NCBI GenBank assembly: GCA_045120395.1
Contig: JBGVET010000026.1
Coordinates: 5,691 to 69,690, forward strand
DNA: 64,000 nt
Direction of reading: 5' to 3'
Source: Candidatus Limimorpha sp.
Lineage (GTDB): Bacteria > Bacteroidota > Bacteroidia > Bacteroidales > F082
Numbering within the stretch: the first letter of the stretch is position 1; every line of letters starts with the position of its first letter. A model generated the notes under the pieces. The model was not told the DNA's origin and made no database searches. It saw only the letters and a program-made list of their open reading frames with translations. Below are positions 4,459 through 29,019 of this stretch, piece after piece. Position numbers and translations under genes: made by a program.

Positions 4459-4477
4459 TCATTAAAAAATAAATATT

Positions 4478-7576: not shown

Positions 7577-7611
7577 TACGAATAATGAAATAATTATATA
7601 AAATAAAAGAT

Positions 7612-8211: not shown

Positions 8212-8233
8212 TTTTTGAACAATCAATTGGTAT

Positions 8234-9918: not shown

Positions 9919-9927
9919 AAGAAGTAT

Positions 9928-10914: not shown

Positions 10915-10960
10915 TATATCAACCATAACGAATTGTAAAATTACCTAAAATTGATATGAT

Positions 10961-11200
10961 ATGTGTAAAAAACAGATGAATGAGTTAAAAGAATTATTTA
11001 ATGCCTCCATACCTTCACCTGAAGAAACATCTACTGAAAAGATATTATTATCTAACGGTAGAATTTCTCTTCTCAAGAAAACAGATGGAACATTCTGTTT
11101 GAAAAATGAAATCGTGGGGTGTCAATATGGACATTTTTTAACAAAAAAAGAAGCAGAAGAATATTGGGAGGATATTGTTATTGATGACAACACCTTGTAA
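10961..11200 (+). CDS. small hypothetical cytoplasmic protein (79 aa)
   Basis: ORF in operon register, no signal peptide; weak support. Confidence 0.35.
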   Translation: MCKKQMNELKELFNASIPSPEETSTEKILLSNGRISLLKKTDGTFCLKNEIVGCQYGHFLTKKEAEEYWEDIVIDDNTL

Positions 11201-11252
11201 AAAGCTAAATTGTACAAAATTTGAAAAAATCAATTAAATAGGAGAAATAATA

Positions 11253-13355
11253 ATGAAGAGACTTTTTTTGTTATTGCTGTTTGTAAATAGTCTTGCTTAT
11301 GCTCAAAATTATAGTATAAGTAGCGTTATTGAACTTCAAAATGATTTGGCGGCCAGAAGAAATGTAGTGACTGACTCGTCGGGGATAGGTTGCGCTTTGA
11401 TTAGGGTAAACATTCCTTCTGTTAATAATATCAAATTTGATTCGTCAATAGTTGGCGAAGTAGAGTTTTTGCCAGGTGAATATAATGTTTATTTACCAGA
11501 ATATTCAAATTTATTATCAGTTTCAGTAGATGGAGAATGGTATGATATAGATTTTTCAAAATTCAATATTACGATTGAAGAGAAAAAATGCTATCGCATT
11601 ATTTTTAGGAAGAATATAAATACTAATGTACCTGTGGTTTCAAAAACTTCAATTAATGCAAATTATGACAACGTGGTGGTATTGATTGATGGTGTGCCTG
11701 TGGGACAAACTCCATTACAACTGGATAACATATCACTAGGAGAACATATTTTATCTGTCCCGAATACAAATGGAGTGACCATGCGTGATACAACTATTGT
11801 TTTCACAGAAAACAATATAATAAACTTGTTTCTGCACAAAGAGGATAAAAAAACAGTTATTGTTGACATGGCCACGCCAGGTGGGGATTCATGTGGATGG
11901 TATAATGTTTTTGGTACAAATATTAAAGAAGAAAATGGAAAAGTAGGTGTTGTTGAGTATACAGGAGATACAATTGTTCCCTTCGAATTTGATTATATAT
12001 ATCCAGGTATTCTGAATGGATATTATCTCGTGAATAAAGATGATAAATGGGGATTATACGATATGGATAAAGGCTTAGTTGTTCAGTGTGTATATGATAA
12101 TATAAGTGCATGGAAATCGTATGCTCATGATCAATATATGCCTGTTGCCCAGGATGATAAGTGGGGAGTTATTTCTCCAGAAGGGGAATTGATTATCCCT
12201 ATAAAATATGAAAATCATCCCCAACTATATGAAGATGTCATAAAAGTGGAATATATAGAACAAGAAAGTAAGAAAGAATTTTATGGAGTTTATTCATATG
12301 ATGGAGAAGAAATTATAAAACCTAAATACGAATATATGAATGAATTTGTTAATGGCTATGCTTTCTTTAGAAAGTATGATGACACAGTAGGTTTTGTTGA
12401 TATTTATGGAAATGAAACATATTTTCCAGAAGGTTATAGTGTTGGGAGTAGTTGGGGAATAGGTGGAACCATATTTAGGAGTAATCTCTTTAGAGTAAAA
12501 GATAAGGTATCAGGTAAATGGGGATACATGAACTCTCAACTTGAATTGGTTATTCCTTGTATTTATGATGCAATAAGTGAATACGACGCTGCACCTAATT
12601 TCAATAATGGAATAGTGCTATTAAAACTAAATGAAGATAAATTGGTATTGGACTCAAATGGTAACATTATTGTAAGTTGTAAAAATCATGGATACAGTGA
12701 TATTGAGATAGTTAGTCGTTCAAATTCCATATGGAATCATGGTCGTTTCTTTGAGTATCACGATTACTACGACATAGATAATAATACTCTTATTAAAGTT
12801 GTAAATTTAGATGCCAAATGTGGCCTTATAGATACAGATGGAAACATCATTGTTCCGTGCAAATATGAAGAAGATGACATACGATGGTTTTGTGATAATT
12901 ACACAAATTATTTTACTTTGTTAAATAACGATGAAGTAATTATATGTGACAAACATCAGAATGAGTTATTACGATTGCCTTCAAATCTTAGAATTCTTGA
13001 AATAACAGATGGATTCATTATGATTAAAGATGAAGAATCTGGATCTTATGGCTATCTTAATACAAAAGGTGAAATTTTAGCAAATTGTATTTATGGTAAT
13101 AGTTATAATGAACAACAGCTTGAAGGTGACAATGATGATAATGATGGGTATGACATGGCTAATGTTATAAATGAACAACCTATAACAGAAGGATTAGCAA
13201 TCTTAAATATAGGAGATAGATTTGGTTTTATTGATAATAATGGAAATGTTAAAGTGCCGCTTATTTATACTGCCGTAACACCATTTGAGAATGGTATGGC
13301 ATATGTTAGACAACAAAATGGAGAATGGAAAAAAATTTATAAAGACGAATTATGA
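11253..13355 (+). CDS. secreted PEGA-domain / WG (KWG) beta-repeat protein (700 aa)
   Basis: Signal peptide LLLFVNSLAYAQ; PEGA-like VVVLIDGVPVGQTPLQLDNISLGEHILSV; repeats DDKWGLYD, DDKWGVISPEGELIIP, SGKWGYMNSQLELVIP, KCGLIDTDGNIIVP, RFGFIDNNGNVKVP. Confidence 0.65.
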   Translation: MKRLFLLLLFVNSLAYAQNYSISSVIELQNDLAARRNVVTDSSGIGCALIRVNIPSVNNIKFDSSIVGEVEFLPGEYNVYLPEYSNLLSVSVDGEWYDIDFSKFNITIEEKKCYRIIFRKNINTNVPVVSKTSINANYDNVVVLIDGVPVGQTPLQLDNISLGEHILSVPNTNGVTMRDTTIVFTENNIINLFLHKEDKKTVIVDMATPGGDSCGWYNVFGTNIKEENGKVGVVEYTGDTIVPFEFDYIYPGILNGYYLVNKDDKWGLYDMDKGLVVQCVYDNISAWKSYAHDQYMPVAQDDKWGVISPEGELIIPIKYENHPQLYEDVIKVEYIEQESKKEFYGVYSYDGEEIIKPKYEYMNEFVNGYAFFRKYDDTVGFVDIYGNETYFPEGYSVGSSWGIGGTIFRSNLFRVKDKVSGKWGYMNSQLELVIPCIYDAISEYDAAPNFNNGIVLLKLNEDKLVLDSNGNIIVSCKNHGYSDIEIVSRSNSIWNHGRFFEYHDYYDIDNNTLIKVVNLDAKCGLIDTDGNIIVPCKYEEDDIRWFCDNYTNYFTLLNNDEVIICDKHQNELLRLPSNLRILEITDGFIMIKDEESGSYGYLNTKGEILANCIYGNSYNEQQLEGDNDDNDGYDMANVINEQPITEGLAILNIGDRFGFIDNNGNVKVPLIYTAVTPFENGMAYVRQQNGEWKKIYKDEL

Positions 13356-13996
13356 TCAGGTGTTTTTTTATCATTATAGCTACATTTATTAGTTTAAATT
13401 CGTTTGCGCAGAATTTAACTATAAATAGTTGCAAATATTGCAAGACGGATTCAACATATATTGTTTTACAGAGATATGACATAAATGATAATCCTTGTGC
13501 CATTATTAAAGTCTTCCCAAAAGATATTAAGGGAAAACTTGAATTTAAGGGTAATATTATAGGCGAAGTTATAAATAATGATGATCATTATGTTATTTAT
13601 GTCTTAAATAAGACTAAACGAATTAGTGTTTTCCATACAGATTATACTCCAGAAGTTATTGATTTTACAAAATATGATGATACTTCAATGGGTGTTGAAC
13701 AAAATAAAGTATATTATGTTCAGATAGCGGGAGATACTAAAAACACGTCGTCCTCAGATATGGTATACCCATCAGGATCTAGAGTACTATCATTTTCTTC
13801 AGATAATGAACTTAAGCAATTAGTTGTAAATGACATCGATTGGCAAATTGTTGATAATAGTGCAAAAAAGCTATTGCCATATGGGAAATATAAATATGAA
13901 GCAATCGATACTGAAGGACGATGTTTGAAGGGTGAAGTAGAGTTACTCCCTGCAATAGGGAGTAAGATTGTCAAATTAAATTTTGGTAATAATTAG
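13352..13996 (+). CDS. secreted hypothetical protein (214 aa)
   Basis: ATGA overlap with upstream gene; signal peptide FFIIIATFISLNSFAQ. Confidence 0.5.
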   Translation: MIRCFFIIIATFISLNSFAQNLTINSCKYCKTDSTYIVLQRYDINDNPCAIIKVFPKDIKGKLEFKGNIIGEVINNDDHYVIYVLNKTKRISVFHTDYTPEVIDFTKYDDTSMGVEQNKVYYVQIAGDTKNTSSSDMVYPSGSRVLSFSSDNELKQLVVNDIDWQIVDNSAKKLLPYGKYKYEAIDTEGRCLKGEVELLPAIGSKIVKLNFGNN

Positions 13997-14512
13997 ATGG
14001 AAAAATATAATCTTGAGGAATATGTGGTTAAAGCTTCTCCTAAAGTTAATCAATTATTGAGGGGTAATATTGATGCATCTGAATATACCTTTGACTCATT
14101 ATTTGAAAAAGGTATAGTATCCCAACCTCTTTATCGATTGATTAACAATGAGCATATTCACATTCAAGATGGAATCTTTGCTGATAAAGGATATTTGTCT
14201 TGTACAAGTGATTTTGATTCATTTATCCATCATGTAGATGGTGTAAATGTTGCATGTCTGCAATTTAATATACCCGATAGTTTTCAGAGAATAGATGTAC
14301 ACGCTTTATTGCCTGACCACACTGATGAAGGTGAAATAGTCCTTCCGAGAGGCCTTCAATTTAGGGTTGAAAGCGTACAAGAGTATGCGACTCCTAGTGA
14401 TATTCAAAATTTCTTGGATAATATAGGAAGTATCTCATCTGCTAAAGAAATTTGTGGTATATATGGAATAAAAACGATAACCTACTATAGATTATCACTA
14501 ATTCTGCATTAG
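13997..14512 (+). CDS. ADP-ribosyltransferase-like protein (C3/VIP2-type R-S-ExE pattern)
   Basis: VNQLLRG; PLYRLI (Arg); GYLSCTSD (STS-like); DEGEIVLPRGLQFRV (ExE + following LPRG); no signal peptide; ATG abuts upstream TAG. Confidence 0.65.
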   Translation: MEKYNLEEYVVKASPKVNQLLRGNIDASEYTFDSLFEKGIVSQPLYRLINNEHIHIQDGIFADKGYLSCTSDFDSFIHHVDGVNVACLQFNIPDSFQRIDVHALLPDHTDEGEIVLPRGLQFRVESVQEYATPSDIQNFLDNIGSISSAKEICGIYGIKTITYYRLSLILH

Positions 14513-14576
14513 AATATGCATTTATAGAGTTAATATATATCGTTAAGAACAACTATAAACCAAGCAACAGAAACAT

Positions 14577-15494
14577 ATGAATCCATTTGACGCAAACGAA
14601 AGACATAGATATATTATAGAATCTGGCGGCATCCCTGCATCTTCTAGAGAGGAGCAGGAGAAGGAAATGTGGGTTAACTCTATTAATGTTGATCTAGATA
14701 TTCCTATATATCGTTATATGAAATGGGAATATCTACAAAAGTTTTATTCCTCTACACGGCATGAATGGATATTAGCACATCCGTGTTTATGGCAAGATAA
14801 GTTTGAGCATTTTATATTTAAATGCGAGAAGGTCCATAGTTCGAAAATGAATATCGATATTGAAATATCAAATCTTGCAGATCATTATTATGCCCAATGT
14901 TGGACTATTGTTGAAGAATCTTCATTGCAATGGCAGGTTAATAAGCCCCATACTAATAGTTGTCACGATAATGTAGGGGATGATGAAAATGGAGAAATTT
15001 GGGTAAAAGTACGAACTACGCCGAGAAAACTATTAGGAGCAATGTTTTATTCTTCAGACAATCTTGTGGAAAATTCCTACAATATGATAACATACTTTAT
15101 CGGTAAAGTAGAATATCTTGCTAGTGAAGATATTGAAAACTTTAAGATAACAGATTCTAATCAGTTAATGGACCAAACAGGTTTACTGCAGGTTTTATTT
15201 CTTTTGCAAAAAAGAATGCCATATATACAAGAGCAAGAAGTTCGACTAATTATGCAAGTTGATAGTAATTTTTGCAACAAACATCCAGAAAATATAGTTG
15301 GAAGAAGTATTGACAATTGGTATGATTTGATTGATGAAATTGTTCTTGATCCATGGGTTACCCAAAGTCAGGAGGAGACAGTTAAGTCGTATTTGTTACA
15401 ATTAGCCCAGCAACAAAACCGAACACCTATTAATTGTTGGAAGTCTCATTTAAATGATCATCCCCAATATTTGGTACCTATCCTGGATATTTAA
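14577..15494 (+). CDS. DUF2971-like hypothetical protein
   Basis: IYRYMKWEYLQKFYSS...LAHPCLWQDKFEHF resembles DUF2971 N-terminal pattern (YRY..., ..D.FE); last + strand gene before terminator. Confidence 0.4.
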   Translation: MNPFDANERHRYIIESGGIPASSREEQEKEMWVNSINVDLDIPIYRYMKWEYLQKFYSSTRHEWILAHPCLWQDKFEHFIFKCEKVHSSKMNIDIEISNLADHYYAQCWTIVEESSLQWQVNKPHTNSCHDNVGDDENGEIWVKVRTTPRKLLGAMFYSSDNLVENSYNMITYFIGKVEYLASEDIENFKITDSNQLMDQTGLLQVLFLLQKRMPYIQEQEVRLIMQVDSNFCNKHPENIVGRSIDNWYDLIDEIVLDPWVTQSQEETVKSYLLQLAQQQNRTPINCWKSHLNDHPQYLVPILDI

Positions 15495-15501: not shown

Positions 15502-15539
15502 AAAATCCTCAGCAATCATACGACTACTGAGGATTTTTT
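15502..15539. terminator. bidirectional terminator between the operon and the Argonaute gene
   Basis: AAAATCCTCAG (15502-15512) / CTGAGGATTTT (15527-15537) perfect 11-bp arms with A-run and T-run on either side. Confidence 0.7.
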
Positions 15540-15543: not shown

Positions 15544-17742
15544 CTACAAAAACCATAAATGGTTAGTATCAATATCGTAATTATTTACATCGTTGAAGTA
15601 TGGTAGCATCTGGGCTATCATCTCTGGGTATTTGATTGTTACTGGTAGGTTTTGTTGTTTGACTGATTTCCAATAGATACGACTGAATTGATATACTTGG
15701 TCGATGAGCTGATTGATTGTTGTGGTGTCAATGTCGAGCATAGGGTCGTTGGGACAGTCTATCTTTATTTTTATCGGGAATGGGTATCCGTCGTATGGGT
15801 TTAACCTTGCATTTTCGTAGCGTGTGTTGTTGCATAAAAGATATGTCTTGTCGCCTAAATTAACGTATGTTCCGCTGTATGGCATTAGTTCTTTGTAATT
15901 GTCATCAAATACCACATAGTCTTCTGATTCTGTCTTGTTTATTGACAATACATAAAATGGTATATCAAGATTGAGGTTGTGCAGTGCTTTTTCGATGTGC
16001 GCTATTTCTTTGTGGTTCATAGTTTTGTAATAGTGTATGATTAGTCGTTGTGGTTTGCCGTTTGCAACTGCAAATTTAAGGATGGCATTTTCTATGGAAC
16101 CTGCCAGTTCTTCTAATTCATCATTTAAAAAGTAGGCAAAGGAGTTGAAAGAACCTGTGTTGTCGAATGAGAATGCGGAACCTATATATTGTGTGTTTGT
16201 CTCTGTATTGCGAAATGCTCCTACACCTACTATGAGTTCGTCCTGTTTAGGTGACGATAGTCGCCAAGGTGTTCCGCCGAGTTTGGCATTGATGGCTATA
16301 GACATGTTTTGAAGAGTGTAGGCAAAGTTTTTCAGAGGTTTGCCGTTGCTGTCAGTATTTGTATTGTCGTGTTCAATCATGCTGAGCATTTTGGATGTTT
16401 CAATGCATTGCGAGACGATATTGTATCTGAGCAGTCTTTCTTTTACTCTGTAATATATCTTACGTTCTTCCTTGTCGGATGTGTGTCTGCCTATCGGCGT
16501 CAGGTATATGGCGATTATCTTTTCATTATGATTAAAAGTCATATTTCTAAGGAAGTCGTTCAGTTCTCCCAAGATATTGTTTGTGTCTTGTATTTCAAGA
16601 AATTTATTTGAGAAAGAAAAATCTCTACCTATGTATAGTTTTAGTCCTTTGAACAGTTGTTTATAGTCATTTTTGAAATATCTGAGGAGGTTTCTTGCTG
16701 CTTCTCTGTCTTCTTTCGGGAATATCGCCAACATTGTAATAGATGGATATGGCGTTGGCTGAAACGGACCGTGGTTAACTCCGATTTGTGGATTATAGTT
16801 TGTTGTATTGCCTCCAAACATCAGCGATCTGCTTGCTGAATTGGTGTGACCTATCTGCAAAGGATTAAGTTTAGCAAATCCATCTTCGATATTTATCAGC
16901 TTACGGAATTCATCGTTGTTGATAGTCTTATAAAAAGCAGAAATTTTGTCAAAGTATCTTTTGTATTTGTTTCTTGGATATGTCTTTTTGTAAGATAATG
17001 GTTCTTCGATTTCGTCTTCATCGGCAAATTCTATTTGCAGATAGTTTATCAGTTCACGATTCATTATAGGATATGCGGCGTTTGAATCGAAGTTTTCTGT
17101 AAGAGATATTGAACTGTATTTATCTACAATGAATTTTGTGAATTTGTCTTTTCTTCTGTAAACGACTTTTCCGAAGAGTTCGGCTGATGGCTGTATCGGT
17201 GAAAATGGGTCGTCGGATGACTGCATAATCTTTGCCACCGAATATTTATACACCCATGTCGGACGGTCGTATGTGATGACGAGCTGCGGTGTGTTGTTAA
17301 ATCTATCGTAGTTGACTTTTAGAGTAAAACGGTCATATTTGATACATTCAGGATAAGGATTATCTCTACCATCTCTGAACCAAATCTGATTGTCTTTTGT
17401 TATTTTATTGGTTTCTATCAGAAAGTTCTTACTTACAAAATATTGGTAAATAAGTCTGTTGTAGTATCGTTTTGCGAATGCAAAATTTCTCGGGTCACGC
17501 AGGTCTATCTTGACAGGTGTGAATCCGTTAGTTTCGACTTCAAATGTTGAATAAATCTTGTCTCCATTTTTAAAATCAGGGAATGCTTCTTCCAATTCTA
17601 TGGGTTTGTTGTGATGCGTCAAGAATGGGAAGTTTATTCTATCAGTTGTGTGCAAGAAATAGAATGTTTGCGGTTCTTCAGGAAATTGAAAGCGAATGGC
17701 GTTCAAGAAGAGAGATTCTTGTGATGATTGATTGTTGTTCAT
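15544..17742 (-). CDS. prokaryotic Argonaute, long form, predicted catalytically inactive (long-B-like)
   Basis: PIWI-entry motif NMSIAINAKLGGTPWRL; MID-like YYRVKERLLRYNIVSQCIETSK; DEDX positions substituted (LIVGVGAF where GxDV expected, LIIHYYKT where RDG expected); 732 aa. Confidence 0.8.
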   Translation of the reverse strand: MNNNQSSQESLFLNAIRFQFPEEPQTFYFLHTTDRINFPFLTHHNKPIELEEAFPDFKNGDKIYSTFEVETNGFTPVKIDLRDPRNFAFAKRYYNRLIYQYFVSKNFLIETNKITKDNQIWFRDGRDNPYPECIKYDRFTLKVNYDRFNNTPQLVITYDRPTWVYKYSVAKIMQSSDDPFSPIQPSAELFGKVVYRRKDKFTKFIVDKYSSISLTENFDSNAAYPIMNRELINYLQIEFADEDEIEEPLSYKKTYPRNKYKRYFDKISAFYKTINNDEFRKLINIEDGFAKLNPLQIGHTNSASRSLMFGGNTTNYNPQIGVNHGPFQPTPYPSITMLAIFPKEDREAARNLLRYFKNDYKQLFKGLKLYIGRDFSFSNKFLEIQDTNNILGELNDFLRNMTFNHNEKIIAIYLTPIGRHTSDKEERKIYYRVKERLLRYNIVSQCIETSKMLSMIEHDNTNTDSNGKPLKNFAYTLQNMSIAINAKLGGTPWRLSSPKQDELIVGVGAFRNTETNTQYIGSAFSFDNTGSFNSFAYFLNDELEELAGSIENAILKFAVANGKPQRLIIHYYKTMNHKEIAHIEKALHNLNLDIPFYVLSINKTESEDYVVFDDNYKELMPYSGTYVNLGDKTYLLCNNTRYENARLNPYDGYPFPIKIKIDCPNDPMLDIDTTTINQLIDQVYQFSRIYWKSVKQQNLPVTIKYPEMIAQMLPYFNDVNNYDIDTNHLWFL

Positions 17743-17815
17743 GTTGTTGTTTTTAATTGTTAATAGAAATTAGCTTTGTTCAATTTCATAGAGTTAGGTT
17801 TTTTGAGTCTATAAG

Positions 17816-17823
17816 CAAATATA
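17816..17823 (-). promoter_or_regulatory. candidate -7 box (TATATTTG on minus strand) for the Argonaute gene
   Basis: CAAATATA on + strand = TAnnTTTG on minus, ~75 nt upstream of ATG 17742. Confidence 0.3.
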
Positions 17824-18028
17824 AAGAAATAGTTGCAATATTTTATGAATGTATGTAAATATTTATTAAGAAATTTTGATTGGAGTAATTAAAGTAATTG
17901 GAGTGATATTGCGGATGCTTTTAATTTTATAGGGTGATGATTCTACGATTATATTTCTTTAATAATAACATCACCAATACATAATAGTTATTTTTATAAA
18001 AACATTTGACATTTTAATATATTATATA

Positions 18029-18036
18029 TACTTTTG
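18029..18036 (+). promoter_or_regulatory. candidate -7 box TACTTTTG for the wHTH/NTase/phosphoesterase operon
   Basis: Matches Bacteroides TAnnTTTG, 33 nt upstream of ATG 18069. Confidence 0.4.
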
Positions 18037-18068
18037 CACATAATATTATATGTGATATAATTTGCAGA

Positions 18069-19031
18069 ATGAAATATAACATTAAAAAAATATCTGATTA
18101 TCTCAATAACCTAATTGGAAATGACATAAATGTATTTCCAACAGAAAAGGCTGTAATCAGCAAGCTTCCCTTTACTCTTGCCAAGAGTTATGATTTCCAC
18201 GATATGGAAATTATAGGTAATCACATTACGGTTGCTGTACCAACTGAACCTGACGAATGTTCTCCTATGCAATTAGCAAAACATCAGACTAAGATGATGG
18301 ATATATTTGAGCGTCCTGTTGTGTTTGTATTAGAAGAGATAGAATCTTATAATCTTACTCGACTTACACACGCAAGAGTGAATTTCATAGTTCCGAACAA
18401 GGTGGTGTTTGTTCCAAGTCTGATGATGGTTCTTAGGGAAGTAAGAAAGACCAATAAATCATTGTCTGATACCATGCCTCCGGTTGCGCAGTTGTTACTT
18501 CTTTATCATATCCAAGTGAAAAACCTTAATGGAATGACTACTGCTGAATTGGCAAATATTGTATCAATGGCATATCCGACTATCAATGTGGCTCTCCGTT
18601 GGTTGGAGAGAAATGGTCTTATAGAACTCATGGGAGGAAAGCAAAAGACAGTAAATTTTGTTGCAAATGGAAAAGAGCTATGGGATAAGGCACTCCCAAT
18701 GATGACTTCGCCTATTGAACGTACAATATATGCAAATACAAGACCTACAGATTCATTGTTTTCAAATGAAACAGCAATGGGACATCACACAATGTTGGCA
18801 GAACCAAATACTGAAATTGTAGCCATAAGCAAAACAACGGCAAAAGAATATGAGGTTTTTTTCAACAAACAATATGGCAATGTGAAAGTTGAAGTATGGA
18901 AATACGCCCCATCGCTTCTGTCGGGAAATGAATATGTGGATAGATTGTCGTTGTATTTGAGTTTAAGAGACAATGAAGATGAGCGAATACAAATTGAATG
19001 TGACACTTTAATTGAAGAAATGAAATGGTAA
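18069..19031 (+). CDS. winged-helix DNA-binding protein, AbiEi-like antitoxin/regulator candidate
   Basis: MarR-like wHTH MTTAELANIVSMAYPTINVALRWLERNGLIEL; translationally coupled (ATGGTAA) to a nucleotidyltransferase gene. Confidence 0.5.
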   Translation: MKYNIKKISDYLNNLIGNDINVFPTEKAVISKLPFTLAKSYDFHDMEIIGNHITVAVPTEPDECSPMQLAKHQTKMMDIFERPVVFVLEEIESYNLTRLTHARVNFIVPNKVVFVPSLMMVLREVRKTNKSLSDTMPPVAQLLLLYHIQVKNLNGMTTAELANIVSMAYPTINVALRWLERNGLIELMGGKQKTVNFVANGKELWDKALPMMTSPIERTIYANTRPTDSLFSNETAMGHHTMLAEPNTEIVAISKTTAKEYEVFFNKQYGNVKVEVWKYAPSLLSGNEYVDRLSLYLSLRDNEDERIQIECDTLIEEMKW

Positions 19032-19792
19032 CAGGACTTGACCGCTGGAGAGAGTATTTCGGCGAATATAAAGATAAATATGTATTGATTGGTGGTGCCG
19101 CCTGCAATCTTCTTGAAGAAGAATTGGATATGAATCCGAGAGCGACCAAAGACCTTGACCTCATTCTTGTAGTAGAGGCGCTTACCCCAGATTTCGGTTC
19201 TCGATTATGGGATTTCATAAAACATGCGAACTACACCAACAGGAACATTGGAGAAAACGAGCATAAGCATGAATACTATCGTTTTACAAATCCACAAGAC
19301 AAGACATACCCTAAACAAATAGAACTGTTTGCACGTAACACTGGTATCTTAAATCTTCCTGCTGACGCACATCTGGAACCAATAAGCTTAGGCGAAAACC
19401 TTTCCAGTCTGTCTGCAATACTGATGGATAATGATTATTATTCATTCACAATAGAACACAGCAGGAATATTGAAGACATTCATATCGCCAATCCTGAGTC
19501 TCTTATATGTCTTAAAGCAAAGGCTTATATCGAAATGCTTGAAAGAAATGAAAAGGGAGAGCGGGTTGACAATAGGGATATTGAAAAGCATAAGAAAGAT
19601 ATATTCCGACTTGTTGCAATGCTTCCACAAGACTCGCATTTCAATCTGCCAGAGAAGTTGCGTAATGATATGAACTTTTTTGTACAAAGAATCGGAGACA
19701 TACCTAATTCCGACTTCTTCAAAAGTGCTGGATTAAAGGGATTGAATGCAACAGACCTCTTAGATCTTTTAGTCAAAGCATTTGTATTATGA
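19025..19792 (+). CDS. nucleotidyltransferase-fold protein, AbiEii/AbiGii-toxin-like
   Basis: LIGGAACNLLEEELDMNPRATKDLDLILV (GG...R.TKDLDL NTase motif); C-terminal KAKAYIEML...RDIEKHKKDIFRL. Confidence 0.6.
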   Translation: MVTGLDRWREYFGEYKDKYVLIGGAACNLLEEELDMNPRATKDLDLILVVEALTPDFGSRLWDFIKHANYTNRNIGENEHKHEYYRFTNPQDKTYPKQIELFARNTGILNLPADAHLEPISLGENLSSLSAILMDNDYYSFTIEHSRNIEDIHIANPESLICLKAKAYIEMLERNEKGERVDNRDIEKHKKDIFRLVAMLPQDSHFNLPEKLRNDMNFFVQRIGDIPNSDFFKSAGLKGLNATDLLDLLVKAFVL

Positions 19793-20598
19793 TTTCAGAT
19801 TGCGGCATAAACGAATATTGTTTTCCAGAAGCCAAAAGCATTGTTGTTTCTGGAGATATTCATGGTGATTTCAATATGCTAATCAATAAAGTCTGCGTAC
19901 AATATCAGATGCAGGACACATTGATTATTGTGGCTGGCGATTGCGGTTTTGGTTTTGAAAACAAAGGATATTATGATAACATCGTGAAACGAAATGCCAA
20001 ACGAATGAACGAAGCTAACAATTGGATTGTGTTTGTTCGTGGCAATCATGATAACCCTGCATATTTTGATGGTAAAGCGTTTTTGCACAAGAGGTTTATG
20101 GCAGTGCCCGACTACTCAATAGTTAAAGCATGTGATAAAGCCATACTTTGTATAGGCGGAGCCATTTCCATTGACCGTAAATATCGTATGAATGCTTGGG
20201 AAGAGTATGTCAAGAAACATAGAGGGCATACTGATGATGGAGCATTGGCAAAAAACGTTTATTGGACTGATGAAGCTCCAATGTTAAATATGGATAAATT
20301 ACGTCAAATTAAAGATACATACAAGCTTAATGCTGTTGTAAGTCATACGGCACCATCTTTCTGTGAACTGCAAAATAAGAACGGACTTTGCTGTTATGCT
20401 TATAACGATGAGAATCTGATATATGATGTTAACAACGAAAGATTGGTTATGGATGAGATACATAATATCTTAAAAGGTCAAAATCATCCAATCACTCACT
20501 GGTGCTACGGTCACTTCCATCAAAGTTTTCATGCTTCCATAGATGGAATTTTGTTTAAAATGCTTGATATAATGGAACTTTATCAAATGGGATACTAA
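19789..20598 (+). CDS. calcineurin-like metallophosphoesterase
   Basis: All five motifs: VSGDIHGD, VAGDCGFG, VRGNHDNP, VSHTAP, YGHFHQ; ATGA overlap with NTase gene. Confidence 0.8.
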   Translation: MISDCGINEYCFPEAKSIVVSGDIHGDFNMLINKVCVQYQMQDTLIIVAGDCGFGFENKGYYDNIVKRNAKRMNEANNWIVFVRGNHDNPAYFDGKAFLHKRFMAVPDYSIVKACDKAILCIGGAISIDRKYRMNAWEEYVKKHRGHTDDGALAKNVYWTDEAPMLNMDKLRQIKDTYKLNAVVSHTAPSFCELQNKNGLCCYAYNDENLIYDVNNERLVMDEIHNILKGQNHPITHWCYGHFHQSFHASIDGILFKMLDIMELYQMGY

Positions 20599-20617
20599 CT
20601 TTCTCTAAATATAAAAA

Positions 20618-20656
20618 CACAACTGCCTGGCATAAAATCAGGCAGTTGTTGTTTTA
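20618..20656. terminator. bidirectional terminator
   Basis: CAACTGCCTG (20620-20629) / CAGGCAGTTG (20639-20648), flanked by A-run and T-rich tail. Confidence 0.65.
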
Positions 20657-20657
20657 T

Positions 20658-22541
20658 TTAGGATTTCCCATACCATCCGTGTTTAACACGGTTCAATTGG
20701 GCGGAGAGCGTCCATTGTTTGAGGTATCGCTCGGCTGTCTTGTGCGGTATGTTTAATGTTTGCGCTACCGACAAGGCTGTTTGTTTGTCGAAATGGTGTG
20801 GCAAAGCATCAAAATATTGCTGTTTGAGCTGGTTCTTGCCAATGGGTTGTTCTTCTGCATTGACAGGAAACGTCTGATAGACCTTAGCTGTGTGTTTGAG
20901 CAGTGTTTCTGCCATTGATATTGCAGTGCTGAAGTCTTTGTTGTTGCATAGCATCACGTTAGGGAATTCGCCGTTTTCAAGTATGCGCAATACAGACAGT
21001 GTCATTGCAAGACGGAATGTTATAAGTCCGAAACGTCTTATTGATGCCACGAAGTCGATACCAAAGCCTGAAGAATACTCCATCTGCATATTTTCAAAGA
21101 AGGAATGGAATTCTTTCTGCTGCGTTGCCGTAAATGAGAATCGTATTGGAGGTGATGTTTTCAAAAGTCGGTATAAGTCAAAGAACTCTCTTCCGTAATT
21201 CTTGAAATGTTCGTCGAGCGTCTCGTCCTGAACTGCAAACACATCGTACCACTCCAATCTGATATTCATGCAATAGAATATGAAACGACTGAATAGTCCG
21301 TTTTCCGCATCTGGTACAAGTGAAAGAATCTGACGAGGTGTTCCAGACAAAAGCGCTGACAGCTTAGGTCTTTCAATCTCAACGAATTCCTTGTCTTTTC
21401 GTCTGTTGTAAGAGATTGGCTCGTGATGAAAAGCTTTTCTAAATCCATCGGAGAAGTTTCCAAAATCTGATTTGAATGTATTTGCAAGTGTATCACCTTC
21501 GGTTTCAAAAATAAGTCCAACGCCTTTGTTGTCGTTCAACACTTGATAAACAGCCGTAGAACTACTGTTTGCTGGAATAAATAGCGTTTTAAGAGGTGGT
21601 TCTATTGGTTGTTCTGCATCTGGATTCTTTTTGTTGATAGAATAATCGACTTGTTGTCGTTTGAAAATCTCCATTTCTACTGCATATTCCTCACGAAGCT
21701 GTTTATGAATGGGATCTATAATAAAACGGCACAACGACAGGCGTCCTTTTCCTGCAGAGGCGTGTGCAGTGACGAAAAGGAAAAGATTAGGAAAGACTTC
21801 TCTGCCTGCGTAGATCCCGTAAATATTTGGCATACAAGCCGAGACAACTGTAAGGGTTCCTAAGATGAGCAGGTCGGAATCTTCATTGGAGATGGAGTCG
21901 CTTGCTATCTTTTTAAGAAATTCTGGAAGATTGTCTCTCACTTTATCACTAAAAGTGGGCATCTGCTCTAATGGTATCGTCTCGATTTCATCTAAAACCT
22001 CAATAACCTCAGTTGAGGTTTTTGAGGATATTGGGGAAATGGGAACTTGGGAACGGGTGTTGATTGTTATTCCTGCTTGTTTGGCGAGGTGGAATAATGT
22101 CTTGATGGTGATTCCGCTTCCGTGTGCTTTTAGGCATGAAGTGAATTGTTTGTCGGTTTCCTCGTAAGAATAGTTTGGATAGAATCTGCTGATACGATGG
22201 AAATATTCTCTTCCGTTTTCGCTGAGTTCTTCGGAAAGAGCAAATCCGAGGTCGCGCCATGACTGATAGTCGGGAGCGATATCGATGGCTTTGTTTTCTA
22301 TTTCCACTGTAAGAAGTTCGATTTCTTGCTGGAGGTCAACAGACAACGGACAATAGTCAACAGAACTTGGGGATACGCTTTTCCCTTGGTCCACGAATTG
22401 GCACGAATTGGTACGAATCATATTTTTGTCTCCACGTATTTCACGTATCTGCACGGATTTTTCTTGGTCTGTATTTTTCTGGTTTGTTGTATCTGGCTTT
22501 TTGTTGAGCCAGTCGGTCATATTAAATTGTTTCTTTGTCAT
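20658..22541 (-). CDS. DUF3987-domain protein (primase/helicase-like, mobile-element replication/mobilisation)
   Basis: PriCT-like SWRDLGFALSEELSENGREYFHRISRFYPNY; P-loop-like VTAHASAGKGRLS; typical partner of VirE_N-like gene in Bacteroidales elements. Confidence 0.65.
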   Translation of the reverse strand: MTKKQFNMTDWLNKKPDTTNQKNTDQEKSVQIREIRGDKNMIRTNSCQFVDQGKSVSPSSVDYCPLSVDLQQEIELLTVEIENKAIDIAPDYQSWRDLGFALSEELSENGREYFHRISRFYPNYSYEETDKQFTSCLKAHGSGITIKTLFHLAKQAGITINTRSQVPISPISSKTSTEVIEVLDEIETIPLEQMPTFSDKVRDNLPEFLKKIASDSISNEDSDLLILGTLTVVSACMPNIYGIYAGREVFPNLFLFVTAHASAGKGRLSLCRFIIDPIHKQLREEYAVEMEIFKRQQVDYSINKKNPDAEQPIEPPLKTLFIPANSSSTAVYQVLNDNKGVGLIFETEGDTLANTFKSDFGNFSDGFRKAFHHEPISYNRRKDKEFVEIERPKLSALLSGTPRQILSLVPDAENGLFSRFIFYCMNIRLEWYDVFAVQDETLDEHFKNYGREFFDLYRLLKTSPPIRFSFTATQQKEFHSFFENMQMEYSSGFGIDFVASIRRFGLITFRLAMTLSVLRILENGEFPNVMLCNNKDFSTAISMAETLLKHTAKVYQTFPVNAEEQPIGKNQLKQQYFDALPHHFDKQTALSVAQTLNIPHKTAERYLKQWTLSAQLNRVKHGWYGKS

Positions 22542-23097
22542 GTCTTAAGAATTTAGGGTTGATGATACAATGTGGGTCGTGTGGAAGGAAGCAGGCTCGT
22601 GAAATGTTTCTGCATTGCGGGTCTGCAACTAGAGAATAGGTGTGTGACAGATAGTTGGAAATGGAATCGAACCAGTCTTGGTGTGATGCCTCTGATATGT
22701 CTATTTCCACAATCCATTTCAGTCCGTCGCCTGATGGTGATACGAATAGCAGTTGTGTCTCGAAGTATTCGTCTTGAATTAGAATGTCCTTTACGTCTTC
22801 TATATTGTTGAGATGGTCGAAGTCGAGACATAAGAGTCCTGAATGTTGGATAAGCCCATCATCGCTACGTTTGTTGAAAGTACCGCTGAAAGTGCAGTAG
22901 TTGAAATTTCTCGCCTTATATTGACGAGCATAACTTTTGTCGGCTATTGCACGCAATGAATTGGTGCTGTGAGTCGCCTGATGTCCTACAATGTAATTGT
23001 AAGCGTCGAGCAAAGTGAAGACCTTGCTCGGCTTAGTGTTGGAGATTGGCAAACTGAAGAATGAGAACTTCTTGTTGTTATTGCTTTGATTTTCCAT
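22522..23097 (-). CDS. VirE N-terminal / BT4734-like domain protein
   Basis: CTFSGTFNKRSDDGLIQHSGLLCLDFDHL...LLFVSPSGDGLKWIV. Confidence 0.6.
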   Translation of the reverse strand: MENQSNNNKKFSFFSLPISNTKPSKVFTLLDAYNYIVGHQATHSTNSLRAIADKSYARQYKARNFNYCTFSGTFNKRSDDGLIQHSGLLCLDFDHLNNIEDVKDILIQDEYFETQLLFVSPSGDGLKWIVEIDISEASHQDWFDSISNYLSHTYSLVADPQCRNISRACFLPHDPHCIINPKFLRHDKETI

Positions 23098-23464
23098 ACT
23101 CGTTTCTGATTTTATACATTACATAATTGTCGGCAAGTATTTTCTGTATATCTTGACGGCGATAATAGATTTTGCCGTTGATACGAGAAAAAGGTAGAGT
23201 TCCGTTAGAACGGAGAGTTTGTAGTGTGCGAGGACTGATGTGCAGTGTTTCCATCACATCTTGATTGTCAATCCAATCATTAAGATGAGTATGTTTAACA
23301 AGATTATTAATTTCATTGTCACTAAGACCATCAAGACTTAACAATCCTTTACTAATCAATTCTGCCTGAATGAAAGGACATTTGACGATAGTCTTTCCGA
23401 TAGCATCATCCTTATCCATTGCCATTTCGCAAATGATGTCTTTCAACAATTTAGGTTCGCTCAT
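23078..23464 (-). CDS. helix-turn-helix (excisionase/MerR-like HTH_17) protein
   Basis: DVMETLHISPRTLQTLRSNGTLPFSRINGKIYYRRQDIQKIL. Confidence 0.6.
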   Translation of the reverse strand: MSEPKLLKDIICEMAMDKDDAIGKTIVKCPFIQAELISKGLLSLDGLSDNEINNLVKHTHLNDWIDNQDVMETLHISPRTLQTLRSNGTLPFSRINGKIYYRRQDIQKILADNYVMYKIRNEYGKSKQ

Positions 23465-23820
23465 CTCAAACCTCCTTTCTTGCTGTTGACATAAGCCAAT
23501 GCTTCTGCATGAAGTTCTGCAGCTGTTTTTCTTTGGTCAGATTTCAACCATACGTCAATCTCCGATTTCAAGAATTGCAGTTTCTTACCTTTCTTATGAT
23601 AAGGTACAGTATGATGAGCCACCCAGCCATAAACCGTTTGCTTTGCTGGTTTATCAGGGACATATTGGCATAGCTGGTCGATGTCAAACCATCTGTCGGG
23701 TTCTACCTTTGCATCGTGAACGGTTTGAAGCAATGACTTCAATTCGTTCACATCTTTCATAAGTTGTGATATTGCCTCTGGCAATTCGTTAAATGTTATG
23801 TTGTCAAATTTTTGTAACAT
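23461..23820 (-). CDS. helix-turn-helix (excisionase-like) protein
   Basis: RWFDIDQLCQYVPDKPAKQTVYGWVAHHTVPYHKKGKKLQFLKSEIDVWLK. Confidence 0.55.
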   Translation of the reverse strand: MLQKFDNITFNELPEAISQLMKDVNELKSLLQTVHDAKVEPDRWFDIDQLCQYVPDKPAKQTVYGWVAHHTVPYHKKGKKLQFLKSEIDVWLKSDQRKTAAELHAEALAYVNSKKGGLR

Positions 23821-23936
23821 GATAACTTATTTTTATGTTAGAAAAATTGGAACTCCACAACCGTCCGAGAGTTCCGTTTTCGGGCGATTGCTTGATGCAA
23901 AAGTAGAATGGAAAATATTGATAATTATAAGAATAG

Positions 23937-24059
23937 CACTCGGCGCCGAGTGACCGCCGAGCGCCGAGTGCTGCAAAGTGCTGATAATAAAAAAGACTAC
24001 CTTTTGAAGATAGTCTCATTATTCTTTTAAATAGATATTATATGTCGAGTGCCGAGTGG
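23937..24059. repeat. GCCGAGTG octamer word repeats including a 16-bp perfect palindrome
   Basis: CACTCGGCGCCGAGTG (23937-23952) then GACCGCCGAGCGCCGAGTG; GTCGAGTGCCGAGTGG at 24044-24059. Confidence 0.6.
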
Positions 24060-24064
24060 TATGT

Positions 24065-25066
24065 TTATGACATTAGATAAGCGAAATGCTTAATATCCGA
24101 CAGTGTTTTTATCGGATCCTTTTGTTTTCTCAGTACATTTATGCCAAATGGTTTGCCATTTTTGTCAACGAAACACGCATCTACAACATCCCATATTGTT
24201 TTACCTTTGGGAATTTTGAGAACTTTATGTTCGTTTACAAGTTGTTTAAACAGGTATGATAAATCACTTTTATTACCTATCCAAGTAATAGGTTTTTCAA
24301 CCTTAACTCCAGAAAAGAGATGCTTGAATTCTGTTATCGGTTCCTCTTTTGGAATGGCATTATGTTGCTTTAATTCATAGAATAAAGCGTTTATATTTTG
24401 ACTGTCAGTTTGTAGTTTCGTATATACAAAAGAAAGAACAACATCTTCATTAACATTCTTATCTTTCTTCACTTCATTTATTGGAGTGATTTCCAAGGTT
24501 GGAATAAGAGTGATATTGACATAATCGCTTTTTCTCCATTGAAGTATCTCAACAAAGAAACTGTCAATGGTTCTTTGCTTGCTTTCCTCAATATAATCAA
24601 TGAAATGCTGTTGAAACTCCATGTAAAATCTTATCAGAGCCAAGACGAGATAATGATATATATAAGTATTTTCATTGATATACAATGCTCCAGAATAATC
24701 CCTCGATATGAACAAAGCGTCTAAATCAAGATTGTTCGTTATGATGATTTCCCTGATTTCTTTTAAACCAGTCTGCACCAATCCTAATATAGATTTTCGA
24801 TAGAATAATGCAAGAGTATTAGAGTTCGTTTTAGAAAAAAAATCGTTCAGTTCGGTCGTGATTGCATTGTCTATCAGTTTCCTGTAGTATCTAACTTTTG
24901 CTGACACCTCAGGTGCGTTGAACTCAATTTTATAGTTACGAGAGAATTTCTCTTCAACCTTACCTAATTCTCGGAATTTGGGTTCGTAGTAGTCGTTACC
25001 TTGTTTGGTTTCTCTCAATGGACACAAGTCAAGTCGAATGATTGAATCTATAGTTTCTTTAAACAT
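24065..25066 (-). CDS. hypothetical protein, RteC-like (tentative)
   Basis: C-terminal ITWIGNKSDLSYLFKQLVNEHKV resembles the W.GSK..L.EL.YAL block of RteC-family proteins; position next to integrase. Confidence 0.4.
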   Translation of the reverse strand: MFKETIDSIIRLDLCPLRETKQGNDYYEPKFRELGKVEEKFSRNYKIEFNAPEVSAKVRYYRKLIDNAITTELNDFFSKTNSNTLALFYRKSILGLVQTGLKEIREIIITNNLDLDALFISRDYSGALYINENTYIYHYLVLALIRFYMEFQQHFIDYIEESKQRTIDSFFVEILQWRKSDYVNITLIPTLEITPINEVKKDKNVNEDVVLSFVYTKLQTDSQNINALFYELKQHNAIPKEEPITEFKHLFSGVKVEKPITWIGNKSDLSYLFKQLVNEHKVLKIPKGKTIWDVVDACFVDKNGKPFGINVLRKQKDPIKTLSDIKHFAYLMS

Positions 25067-25068
25067 AT

Positions 25069-26343
25069 CTATTCCTCCATATTAAGGTTGATGTTTTTCA
25101 AATTTTCAATGACAATAGCATTAGCAGCTGCTTCTTTCTTTTGGTCGACGATGTGAGCGTAGATCTGAGTCGTCTTAATGTCGGTGTGACCAAGCATTTT
25201 ACTTACAGTGTATATATCTGTACCGTGCGTTAGTTGTAATGTGGCGAATGTATGACGGAAGCAGTGGAAAGTTATATTGCGGTTGATACCAGCTGCTTTA
25301 ATCCACTTCTTTAATGGAGGTGAGATTTTGGTTACATCTGGAAGGTCGGCAAACACGAGTTGTTCCGGATGCTTTGGTTCGCCACAGATTTTATACGCTT
25401 GTTCGCTGATTGGCATATATTCAACACCTTTAGTTTTCTGCTGGGTGAAGTTGAGACGATATTTGTCACCGACTTTTTGCAACTCTCCCCATTTAAGTTT
25501 CTTGACATCGCAGTGGCGAAGACCTGTGAGAAGTGAAAAGAATGCGCCTTGTTTCACAACAGGTTTGTCACACTCGGTATTTACGAGAAGATTTATTTCT
25601 TCCAGTGTCAATGTTTCTCTGCGAGTGTCGAGTTCACGGATTCCCTTTGTCTTGGCAGAGAGGTCGATGGTCAGATAACCGTCAACGAAAGCTCTTTTAA
25701 GAACCGTCTTAAAAGTAGAGAAATAGTTAGATGCGGTATTTTGTGAGATTTCAACATTCTTACTGCCTGCGTTTGGTGCTTCAAGGAGGTATTTTCTGAA
25801 ACCTTCAATGAGTTTCATATTTATTTGTGAGAAAGCTACCACTTCGGATTTAGCGAATGCCTTAAACAATTCCAACACTCTTTTCGATGTGACAATCAAA
25901 GAACGTGACGCCTTCTTTTGTCGGTCGGTGATGAGTTTCAGGAAATATTCAATGAAGTTGCATTGTGACTTTAATTGTTGTTCTGCGAGCTCCGCTTCTT
26001 GGTCGGTGTAGAGTGCTTGGTTGTCGAACTCACGTTGACGGAGTTTCCGGACATTGTCGGCATAGATGCACACTTCTTGATCTGCGACACTACGGCATTG
26101 TATTATGCCGTTGATATCACGTTTGGGTTTGTATGTCGTTTTGGTGTCTGTTGTCCTTGCAGTGCGTGATTTATCCCAGATAGGAGTCGTTATTATCCTA
26201 TTGAGATATTCCCTTTCTCGTTTTACTTTAGTGCTGCCAGGAACAAACACTGGATATGACTCTAAATAGAGATACCATTCGTCGGCATATTCAGACTTCC
26301 TAAGTTTGACAGACACCTTTGTATTTATTATTGTTTTTCTCAT
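25069..26343 (-). CDS. tyrosine site-specific integrase
   Basis: TGLRHCDVKKL; HCFRHTFATLQLTHGTDIYTVSKMLGHTDIKTTQIYAH (R, HxxR, H, Y). Confidence 0.9.
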   Translation of the reverse strand: MRKTIINTKVSVKLRKSEYADEWYLYLESYPVFVPGSTKVKREREYLNRIITTPIWDKSRTARTTDTKTTYKPKRDINGIIQCRSVADQEVCIYADNVRKLRQREFDNQALYTDQEAELAEQQLKSQCNFIEYFLKLITDRQKKASRSLIVTSKRVLELFKAFAKSEVVAFSQINMKLIEGFRKYLLEAPNAGSKNVEISQNTASNYFSTFKTVLKRAFVDGYLTIDLSAKTKGIRELDTRRETLTLEEINLLVNTECDKPVVKQGAFFSLLTGLRHCDVKKLKWGELQKVGDKYRLNFTQQKTKGVEYMPISEQAYKICGEPKHPEQLVFADLPDVTKISPPLKKWIKAAGINRNITFHCFRHTFATLQLTHGTDIYTVSKMLGHTDIKTTQIYAHIVDQKKEAAANAIVIENLKNINLNMEE

Positions 26344-26891
26344 ATTGGATGTTGTTTGTAGAGTTTATGAATTTCTGTTTTTGGGACGTATATGCTTTTG
26401 CCTTGATGGCGCATTGGAATTCCGTGTTTACGGATGTGGTTGGAAACTGTAGGTATCGACAAATTGTATTTCTTAGCGACTTCACTGATGGTATAGCAGT
26501 TTTCCAATGAAAGGTCATAGAGCATTGGTTGTGATTCTTCTTTCTTTTGTTCTTGCCGAATTGGAAAGATGGATTCCAATTTTTGTCTGTCGATGCGTAG
26601 CAGTCGTGTTCCAAGGTTGATAGCGGGGATGTGTCCTGTGCGTATCAATCTATATAAGGTGCTTTTTGCAACTCCATATAAGGCGATTGCTTCTGGTACG
26701 GAGATGTAAGGTCTGTTGTCGGGAACTGACTCAGCGATGGCATTCAGTTCTTGTTGTCGTTTTTCTTCAGCCACCTTTCTCTTGTATGCTTTCCTTGAGC
26801 ATTTTTCGGAACAGTAGCGTGAGTTGATGGTCTTTGGAGCGAATTCAATTCCACAGATGGGACAGATTCTTTTTACTTTGGATAGTTTCAT
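26340..26891 (-). CDS. Zn-ribbon + double HTH DNA-binding protein (excisionase/regulator candidate)
   Basis: CPICGIEFAPKTINSRYCSEKC; two HTH_17-like blocks ISVPEAIALYGVAKSTLYRLIRTGHIPA and YTISEVAKKYNLSIPTVSNHIRKHGIP; ATGA overlap with integrase. Confidence 0.6.
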   Translation of the reverse strand: MKLSKVKRICPICGIEFAPKTINSRYCSEKCSRKAYKRKVAEEKRQQELNAIAESVPDNRPYISVPEAIALYGVAKSTLYRLIRTGHIPAINLGTRLLRIDRQKLESIFPIRQEQKKEESQPMLYDLSLENCYTISEVAKKYNLSIPTVSNHIRKHGIPMRHQGKSIYVPKTEIHKLYKQHPI

Positions 26892-26979
26892 TTTGATAAT
26901 AATTTAAGGTTTGACAAATGGCTTTTAGTGTTCATTGGTTTCAGTTCATAACATTTTTAGTTTCGGTACAATTATGGTA

Positions 26980-26987
26980 CAAATATA
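26980..26987 (-). promoter_or_regulatory. candidate -7 box (TATATTTG on minus) for the integrase operon
   Basis: CAAATATA on + strand, ~90 nt upstream of ATG 26891. Confidence 0.3.
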
Positions 26988-27036
26988 CGAAAAACTTTCA
27001 AGAAAAACAACATAATAACGATAATTTTTTATAAAT

Positions 27037-27071
27037 AAAAATAGTGTAACAGATTGTGTTACACTATTTTG
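27037..27071. repeat. perfect 10-bp-stem hairpin at island/core junction
   Basis: ATAGTGTAAC (27041-27050) / GTTACACTAT (27058-27067), AAAA before and TTTT after. Confidence 0.6.
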
Positions 27072-27178
27072 TAGTTAAAGTTGTTTATGAATTATTTTGA
27101 TGGAATTAACTAACTCCTAACTCCTAACTAAAAAAAACTTATTGTCTTATAGTCTTGTGGTCTTGTTGACTTTTTTCT

Positions 27179-28980: not shown

Positions 28981-29016
28981 TCTAACTCCTAATTCCTAAC
29001 TCCTAACTCCTAACTG
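28981..29016. repeat. CTCCTAA heptamer tandem array
   Basis: TCTAACTCCTAATTCCTAACTCCTAACTCCTAACTG directly before holB ATG. Confidence 0.8.
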
Positions 29017-29019
29017 AAT

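Follow-up and report, generated by a model that had tools for sequence, protein, structure and literature searches.

We analysed a 64,000-nucleotide stretch of a Candidatus Limimorpha sp. contig (the window) and found that it carries an integrative element of about 11.6 kb, the terminal gene of which encodes a full-length prokaryotic Argonaute (pAgo) predicted to be catalytically inactive and of the long-B type. Taking identity, genomic context and mode of action together, we lean, with a little better than even confidence, to the reading that this protein is a long-B pAgo of the AgaPP-associated subclade, that it is a stably co-inherited part of a family of Bacteroidota integrative elements and that it acts by guide-directed binding in the manner of RsAgo, the long-B pAgo of Rhodobacter sphaeroides. 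The gene and the intergenic DNA upstream of it are as follows.

15544..17742, minus strand: pAgo open reading frame (ORF), ATG start, 732 aa; catalytically inactive, long-B-type, full-length
17743..18068, no strand assigned: divergent intergenic region of 326 bp between pAgo and a winged-helix-turn-helix (wHTH) gene

An earlier note on this DNA had claimed an ORF of 732 aa, and we found it as described, with the qualification that the end coordinate given there, 18068, takes in the 326-bp intergenic region 17743-18068. All of the motifs that it had quoted were also located: AINAKLGGTPW at residues 482-492, VGVGAF at 505-510, IHYYK at 569-573, and the Y430..K434..Q445 series. The Pfam Piwi family matched residues 425-713 (9.5e-17), and the PADLOC pAgo model PDLC02385 matched the protein from end to end (1.5e-211). 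An AlphaFold2 model built on 28 homologues (pLDDT 82.9, pTM 0.78) superposed over its whole length on RsAgo with TM scores of 0.63-0.66, on PIWI-clade proteins with 0.62-0.65 and on TtAgo with about 0.59, the overall range against RsAgo, PIWI-clade Argonautes, hAgo2 and TtAgo being 0.58-0.66. With 732 aa and an N-terminal half of its own, the protein has the full-length architecture of long-B pAgos, and the YK-type 5'-end binding motif that is likewise a criterion of that class is present in its MID domain. The nearest solved relatives by sequence and profile were long-B pAgos (AfAgo 7e-20, EcAgo 1e-16, RsAgo 8e-15); the significant Protein Data Bank (PDB) matches in these searches included no long-A pAgo, and there was one marginal match to a short pAgo. 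With these nearest PDB matches as a proxy for clade, the sequence identifies a real, catalytically dead pAgo of predicted long-B type. Long-B pAgos were found to be all inactive, and almost always of the YK type, by Ryazansky et al. 2018.

The protein belongs to a sizeable family: of 1.84 billion cluster representatives searched, 234 matched at E<=1e-30. The dN/dS values of pAgo, 0.045-0.085, indicate strong purifying selection. The possibility that the gene is a decaying pseudogene or relic was ruled out by its intact ORF, its retained invariant residues and a dN/dS of about 0.07-0.085.

We mapped the catalytic tetrad onto TtAgo, using a reference identical to PDB 3DLB_A over 685/685 residues, and counted conservation in 132 family representatives of 50%-identity clusters. 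In the family profile alignment D478, E512 and D546 of TtAgo correspond to G508, E542 and Y572, and an alignment extended by hand (LPAPLHLAD against LPVTIKYPE) places D660 at E707. The first Asp position is occupied by G, S, A or N and the third by Y, F, H or N, with Asp at neither in any of the 132 representatives. These results uphold the earlier claim that the DEDX tetrad is lost, and the pAgo is predicted to be unable to slice. The MID pocket for the guide 5'-phosphate, on the other side, is kept: Y430 was found in 129/132 representatives, K434 in 126/132, and both Q445 and K487, the latter aligning to AfAgo K163 in the SKLGG motif, in 132/132. The chain ends in W730-F731-L732, and it ends at the same column in 129/132 representatives. 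In the structures of AfAgo and RsAgo the C-terminal carboxylate reaches the MID pocket, and the conserved W-F-L end fits such an arrangement. The 5'-phosphate pocket and the position of the C-terminal carboxylate are therefore predicted to be intact in the dead protein. Furthermore, a motif specific to the clade, G-x-G...H-[YF]-Y-K (residues 506-510 and 569-573, window ~16024-16227), occupies the former catalytic site, and its conservation hints at a retained but non-slicing role.

The integrative element was delimited by comparison with L001, a 22-kb locus of another Bacteroidales metagenome-assembled genome in which a pAgo with 98% identity is found at another genomic site. The two sequences align at the DNA level only over window positions 15545-27131, and the rest of the L001 locus was unmatched. 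The left junction is the pAgo stop codon itself (TAG in the window, TAA in L001), and the right junction is the end of a (TAACTCC)3 repeat. The presence of the same 11.6-kb block, with sharp junctions, at a different site in L001 is the behaviour of a mobile element. Its features are listed below, the backbone genes having been identified by Pfam, with the names of ORF clusters (c1 and so on) in brackets.

15545..27131, minus strand: integrative element of about 11.6 kb; DNA common to L001 at 94-97% identity, pAgo being the terminal gene
27111..27131, plus strand: (TAACTCC)3 heptamer repeat at the integrase-side junction
26340..26891, minus strand: HTH_17 DNA-binding protein (c8), first gene of the element
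25069..26343, minus strand: tyrosine integrase (Arm-DNA-bind_5, Phage_int_SAM_5, Phage_integrase)
24065..25066, minus strand: DUF6617-related protein (c2), 333 aa, backbone gene
23078..23820, minus strand: two small HTH_17 (excisionase-like) genes (c6 at 23078-23464, c5 at 23461-23820)
22522..23097, minus strand: BT4734-like_N / VirE_N-type PrimPol (AgaPP-type; c3), 191 aa
20658..22541, minus strand: PriCT_2-DUF3987 helicase (AgaPH-type; c1)
19789..20598, plus strand: calcineurin-like metallophosphoesterase, 269 aa (Pfam)
19025..19792, plus strand: putative nucleotidyltransferase (NTase), 255 aa; GG...DLD by eye, AbiEii PF08843 at E 0.01, below cut-off
18069..19031, plus strand: wHTH-like protein, 320 aa; AbiEi-like by position, HTH matches below Pfam cut-offs

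The order is thus HTH_17, integrase, DUF6617, two HTH_17 genes, PrimPol, helicase, an oppositely oriented operon of three genes and pAgo. The earlier note had treated this pAgo as an undescribed situation. It is not one, since the architecture matches that of the og_54/AgaPP-associated long-B subclade in PMC10620215 and PMC11724360. In the former (Song et al. 2023), long-B pAgos fall into distinct subclades according to their association with a nuclease, SIR2 or membrane protein, a further subclade is linked to a VirE_N protein (og_54) encoded 2-8 genes upstream, some long-B pAgos have no operonic partner, and the functions of the latter two groups are left open. In the latter (NAR 2025), the PrimPol AgaPP and its PriCT-DUF3987 helicase AgaPH were characterised; the integrase, AgaPP, AgaPH and long-B pAgo are presented there as conserved parts of mobile elements in which other genes turn over, and abortive infection is judged an unlikely mode for these pAgos, with their function stated to be unknown. 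Our literature search found no paper testing a pAgo of this subclade.

The window shares with these elements, exemplified by the cluster of Seonamhaeicola sp. S2-3, an integrase, a VirE_N/BT4734-like PrimPol, a helicase directly downstream of it, HTH and defence genes in between, a PIWI domain that is inactive, and the lack of any toxic effector in the pAgo operon. The spacing also agrees: in such elements pAgo follows the PrimPol on the same strand at a distance of 2-8 genes, and in the window at 5 genes (PrimPol at -5, helicase at -4). The same backbone was found in the same-family Flavobacteriia loci L050, L054 and L068. The window differs in that its PrimPol is short (191 aa) and in that the flank past pAgo is an integrase island, not a tRNA gene. 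On the basis of gene architecture, the window pAgo is a further case of the described, functionally unstudied og_54/AgaPP subclade.

Some properties of the element itself were also recorded. The PrimPol ORF aligns to residues 131-309 of 309-aa homologues, its N-terminal ~125 aa being missing in the window and in L001, and the replication module of the element may therefore be altered. No tRNA gene was found in the window and no Rfam family in its positions 1-30000 or in four related loci, so that no tRNA attachment (att) site or known RNA accounts for the junctions. A search for att-type direct repeats flanking 15545-27131 gave none that was convincing, only the (TAACTCC)n at the integrase side being of note. 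This repeat occurs in intergenic DNA at 27111-27131, 28983-29017, 37267-37301, 39678-39698, 44802-44829 and 51914-51934, with 11 matches observed against 0 expected, and copies in L001 flank its junction on both sides. One possibility is that the integrase targets a repeat native to the host's intergenic DNA.

The transcriptional layout described in the earlier note was confirmed. The gene upstream of pAgo is divergent at 326 bp, the gene downstream is convergent at 49 bp, and pAgo is here transcribed alone, without a nuclease, SIR2 or membrane effector in its operon. Candidate signals in the flanking DNA are as follows.

17816-17823, minus strand: -7-type motif TAnnTTTG, 73 nt before the pAgo ATG; motif match only
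18029-18036, plus strand: -7-type motif TAnnTTTG, 32 nt before the wHTH ATG; motif match only
15505-15538, no strand assigned: hairpin (9-bp stem, T-runs on both strands) between the pAgo stop and the convergent gene, a gap of 49 bp; found by eye and with ViennaRNA

TAnnTTTG is the Bacteroidetes-type -7 motif, and pAgo has a promoter-like motif of its own. The hairpin escaped the automatic terminator scan because its loop is longer than 8 nt. A bidirectional terminator shared by pAgo and the convergent genes had been proposed; the hairpin with T-runs on both strands stands, but it sits in DNA that is not common to L001 and is hence to be counted with the adjacent island or the junction.

The neighbours of pAgo were then considered across the family. 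A genome scan provided 80 related loci, and the ORFs of these loci and of the window were clustered by BLASTP and mapped relative to pAgo. No gene family adjoined pAgo throughout the 80 loci. What recurred was a backbone upstream on the same strand, consisting of the helicase in 38 loci, DUF6617 in 35, the PrimPol in 28 and the integrase in 18. Some primase/helicase module lay within 10 kb of pAgo in 45/80 loci, and in 29 of the 41 that had full flanks. Between backbone and pAgo we found exchangeable genes, including type I/III restriction-modification systems, a Dcm/McrB/McrC-like trio, RhuM and ImmA-PIN pairs; in closer relatives (61-74% identity) pAgo follows HsdMSR or a type II-like methylase set. 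Downstream neighbours were mixed, with 74 Pfam families over 52 non-redundant proteins and none in more than 3 of the 52, and no SIR2, TIR or RecB-type family was among the 25 most frequent families of these proteins. RND efflux genes, which Ryazansky et al. 2018 reported in 14% of long-B operons, match downstream genes seen among the related loci. Together, these results show that no conserved effector adjoins pAgo across the family.

Several near-identical pairs of loci (92-99% nucleotide identity; L049/L050, L042/L047, L047/L048, L056/L065, L071/L076 and window/L001) lose homology within 0-4 nt of the pAgo stop, and several do so at the start codon as well. L049 and L050, for example, are 99.4% identical over 6.7 kb upstream plus pAgo and unrelated beyond, and the regulator genes that follow, Fur-like in one and AraC/HMA-like in the other, start within the same ATGA that overlaps the pAgo stop. 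The loss of homology within 4 nt of this codon indicates that pAgo marks the boundary between conserved and variable DNA. An unannotated 212-aa protein (c9) was encoded in 13 loci, 1.6-8.7 kb downstream of pAgo on the same strand (for example L002 13942-14580 and L075 19419-20060; in L075 the very next genes are the HTH_17 and integrase of another element). It may be the last gene of longer variants of the element; the window holds no c9 homologue.

The earlier note had offered the adjacent genes as a possible new pAgo-effector pairing, and the census did not bear this out. The first candidate was the divergent operon at 18069-20598, whose wHTH, NTase and metallophosphoesterase products would form the effector module. 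It has the 326-bp divergent promoter region in common with pAgo and is kept with it in L001 and in contigs of the same strain. However, these are its only occurrences: it was found in 1/80 related loci, and that one, L001, is the same element at 97% nucleotide identity. In L002, whose pAgo protein is 90% identical, the operon is reduced to remnants of 74 aa (first gene) and 32 aa (second gene) that adjoin an unrelated secreted protein of 1320 aa, yet pAgo there is intact with a dN/dS of 0.07. Moreover, the operon looks, from its predicted products, to be an autonomous AbiE-type module with an added phosphoesterase, its first two genes being similar to a self-sufficient AbiEi/AbiEii toxin-antitoxin pair; the putative NTase had no match among PDB sequences. 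We regard it as very improbable that this operon is the effector of the pAgo.

The second candidate was the set of convergent genes beyond the pAgo stop, which belong to another island.

2459-15494, plus strand: second integrase-led island, abutting the pAgo stop codon and transcribed towards pAgo
2459-3685, plus strand: island integrase
4478-7576, plus strand: Tubulin_2+GYF_2 protein, 1032 aa
within 2459-15494, plus strand: MORN-like protein
11253-13355, plus strand: WG-repeat/PEGA protein, 700 aa
13997-14512, plus strand: ADP-ribosyltransferase (ART)
14577-15494, plus strand: PDC-S31 candidate (PADLOC)

That the PDC-S31 ('DUF2971-like') and ART genes supply the effector is suggested by proximity only, that is, by the 49-bp gap and the shared hairpin. 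The convergent genes (tubulin, WG-repeat, ART and PDC-S31) lie outside the element: homology with L001 stops at the pAgo stop codon, the L001 copy lacks them and they occur in none of the 80 related loci. The ART and PDC-S31 genes form the distal end of a separate plus-strand block with its own integrase, and PADLOC treats PDC-S31 as a candidate system of one gene. As a conserved pairing this explanation is refuted by the comparison of loci, and we give it next to no probability. The neighbours of pAgo in the window are exchangeable cargo, in the case of the AbiE-like operon, or part of a separate island.

We also noted that window 1820-1903 matches L002 12330-12413, which lies 137-220 nt downstream of the L002 pAgo, over 84 nt at 82% identity, suggesting that insertion of the second island separated pAgo from the DNA that still lies behind it in L002. 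The L002 region 12400-13200 is GC-rich and seemingly non-coding, with no Rfam match. ORFs called downstream of the L002 pAgo were rejected as probably spurious, being GC-rich with Arg/Ser/Pro-rich products and lacking any homologue in the window.

The only genes that travel with pAgo are DUF6617 and the PrimPol-helicase module. Spearman correlations of their divergence with that of pAgo were 0.86 for DUF6617, 0.81 for the PrimPol, 0.76 for the helicase and 0.68 for the integrase. This raises the alternative that pAgo is a subunit of a multi-gene module, with DUF6617, with or without the PrimPol-helicase, as its effector or as the supplier or processor of its guides. In the window such a partner would be encoded 6 kb away beside the integrase, not in the pAgo operon. 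In 16/80 loci, however, only 3-24 nt (mostly 12 nt) separate the pAgo stop from the start of DUF6617, behind which comes the PrimPol-helicase or a DnaG-like primase set, and the order, with pAgo upstream of its partner, is the same as in the BPAN, BPAS and BPAM systems. DUF6617 also lies within 10 kb of pAgo in the 35 loci mentioned above and has the highest of the correlations. Furthermore, an excised circle, as deduced from the L001 junctions, would put the pAgo stop about 240 bp from the HTH_17 (c8)-integrase-DUF6617 genes on one strand, and PMC11724360 reports co-evolution of pAgo, AgaPP and integrase. The adjacent arrangement is found in a Prevotella/Bacteroidaceae subgroup (L030-L044, L052, L064 and L069; for example L032 10001-13315), where an array resembling an operon opens with pAgo and continues with DUF6617 and then the PrimPol-helicase or a set of c18, c19 and a DnaG-like primase, with no integrase in between.

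Other observations speak against such a module. A metagenome search anchored on DUF6617 returned 17 loci, in which integrase, PrimPol and helicase were present wherever the flanks allowed, but pAgo was found in only 4 of the ~12 that had 4-6 kb of sequence after the helicase; DUF6617 thus behaves as a backbone gene of the element. The correlations may merely mirror shared descent of one element. The AlphaFold model of DUF6617 (pLDDT 86.5, from database homologues) had no PDB fold match with Foldseek and no nuclease, NADase or membrane features, and a profile search of PDB sequences gave marginal, biologically unrelated matches only (best E 0.023). Our literature search returned nothing on the family, and the available portions of PMC10620215 and PMC11724360 make no mention of its backbone role or its adjacency to pAgo. 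On balance, we consider the multi-gene module doubtful. A specific form of it, that pAgo, DUF6617 and PrimPol-helicase are one functional unit in which DUF6617 is a new non-toxic partner or effector, or in which PrimPol primers serve as guides, seems to us quite unlikely. If true, it would constitute a primase-fed Argonaute pathway that an integrative element uses to recognise rival replicons.

Comparison with characterised systems led us to RsAgo as the best guide to the mode of action. The window pAgo resembles it in its full-length fold, inactive PIWI domain, YK-type pocket and lack of a dedicated co-encoded effector. It differs in that the two proteins are 14-16% identical in structural alignment and belong to different subclades and host phyla, and in that RsAgo has not been described in a PrimPol/helicase element. 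The BPAN, BPAS and BPAM systems, such as EcAgo-EcbAgaN, are also long-B with a dead tetrad, and EcAgo was among the best profile matches (1e-16); unlike them, the window has no downstream effector (og_15 nuclease, og_44 SIR2 or og_100 membrane protein), its downstream gene being convergent. AfAgo of Archaeoglobus fulgidus was the best sequence match to the PIWI half (1e-18 to 7e-20) and has the same G-for-D substitution pattern, but it is split, with MID-PIWI only and a separate N-L1-L2 protein, whereas the window pAgo has its own N-terminal half. DdmE-DdmD of Vibrio cholerae is similar in concept only, and offers a parallel to the multi-gene module, as an inactive pAgo-like protein with a helicase-containing partner. 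DdmD is a co-encoded helicase-nuclease, while the helicase here is a PriCT2-DUF3987 replicative helicase that is paired with the PrimPol and does not adjoin pAgo. In contrast to SPARTA, SPARSA and SPARDA, the window pAgo is full-length, and the Pfam and PADLOC scans and the neighbour census revealed no APAZ, TIR or SIR2 neighbour.

By analogy with RsAgo and EcAgo, the pAgo would load small 5'-phosphorylated guides, most probably RNA. The guided protein would then bind invading DNA complementary to the guide, be it from plasmids, phages or rival elements. Interference could result from the binding itself, or the bound target could be passed to non-dedicated nucleases, either of the host or of the restriction systems that often precede pAgo. 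The outcome would be protection of the element and its host without abortive infection.

Four points weigh against this reading. Guide, target and phenotype are drawn by analogy from RsAgo and EcAgo, which share 14-16% identity with the window protein in structural alignment. A model of binding alone has no explanation for the motif at the former catalytic site, in which G506 and H570 are conserved in 100% and K573 in 95% of the 132 representatives. Co-inheritance with DUF6617, PrimPol and helicase, together with the 3-24 nt spacing in 16 loci, implies that pAgo may be non-autonomous. Finally, the link to the element is not universal, as 12 of the 41 loci with full flanks have no backbone module within 10 kb.

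Alternatively, pAgo might serve the life cycle of the element itself, controlling its replication or excision, or excluding related elements, with guides derived from the element or from its rivals. This would agree with the finding that pAgo is conserved and co-diverges with the element while the defence cargo around it turns over, and with its position at the element terminus in the window. The family is also nearly absent from viral contigs (1 match in IMG/VR) and from plasmids (four distant PLSDB matches, with 22-27% identity over at most 60% of the query), which ties it to chromosomal integrative elements. Against it, pAgo usually lies amid restriction-modification, McrBC-like, GmrSD, PIN and RhuM genes, which is the context of a defence island, and to our knowledge all characterised pAgos act on invading DNA. 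A role in the life cycle is compatible with guide-directed defence, and the two are not mutually exclusive; taken as the explanation in its own right, we find it rather improbable.

The mode of an effector-less, dead long-B pAgo is the question posed in PMC10620215 and PMC11724360, and this locus leaves that picture unchanged. It provides a clean and compact example of the subclade, an 11.6-kb element with sharply defined ends. It also adds comparative data, in that the adjacent cargo is excluded as a source of partners and that the guide pocket and C-terminus are strongly constrained across ~130 divergent clusters. A new lead is DUF6617, which is co-inherited with pAgo and directly follows it in a fifth of the loci (16/80), together with the PrimPol link. 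If true, guide-directed binding alone, or a primase-linked route, would add a third kind of pAgo immunity to the two based on slicing and on abortive infection.

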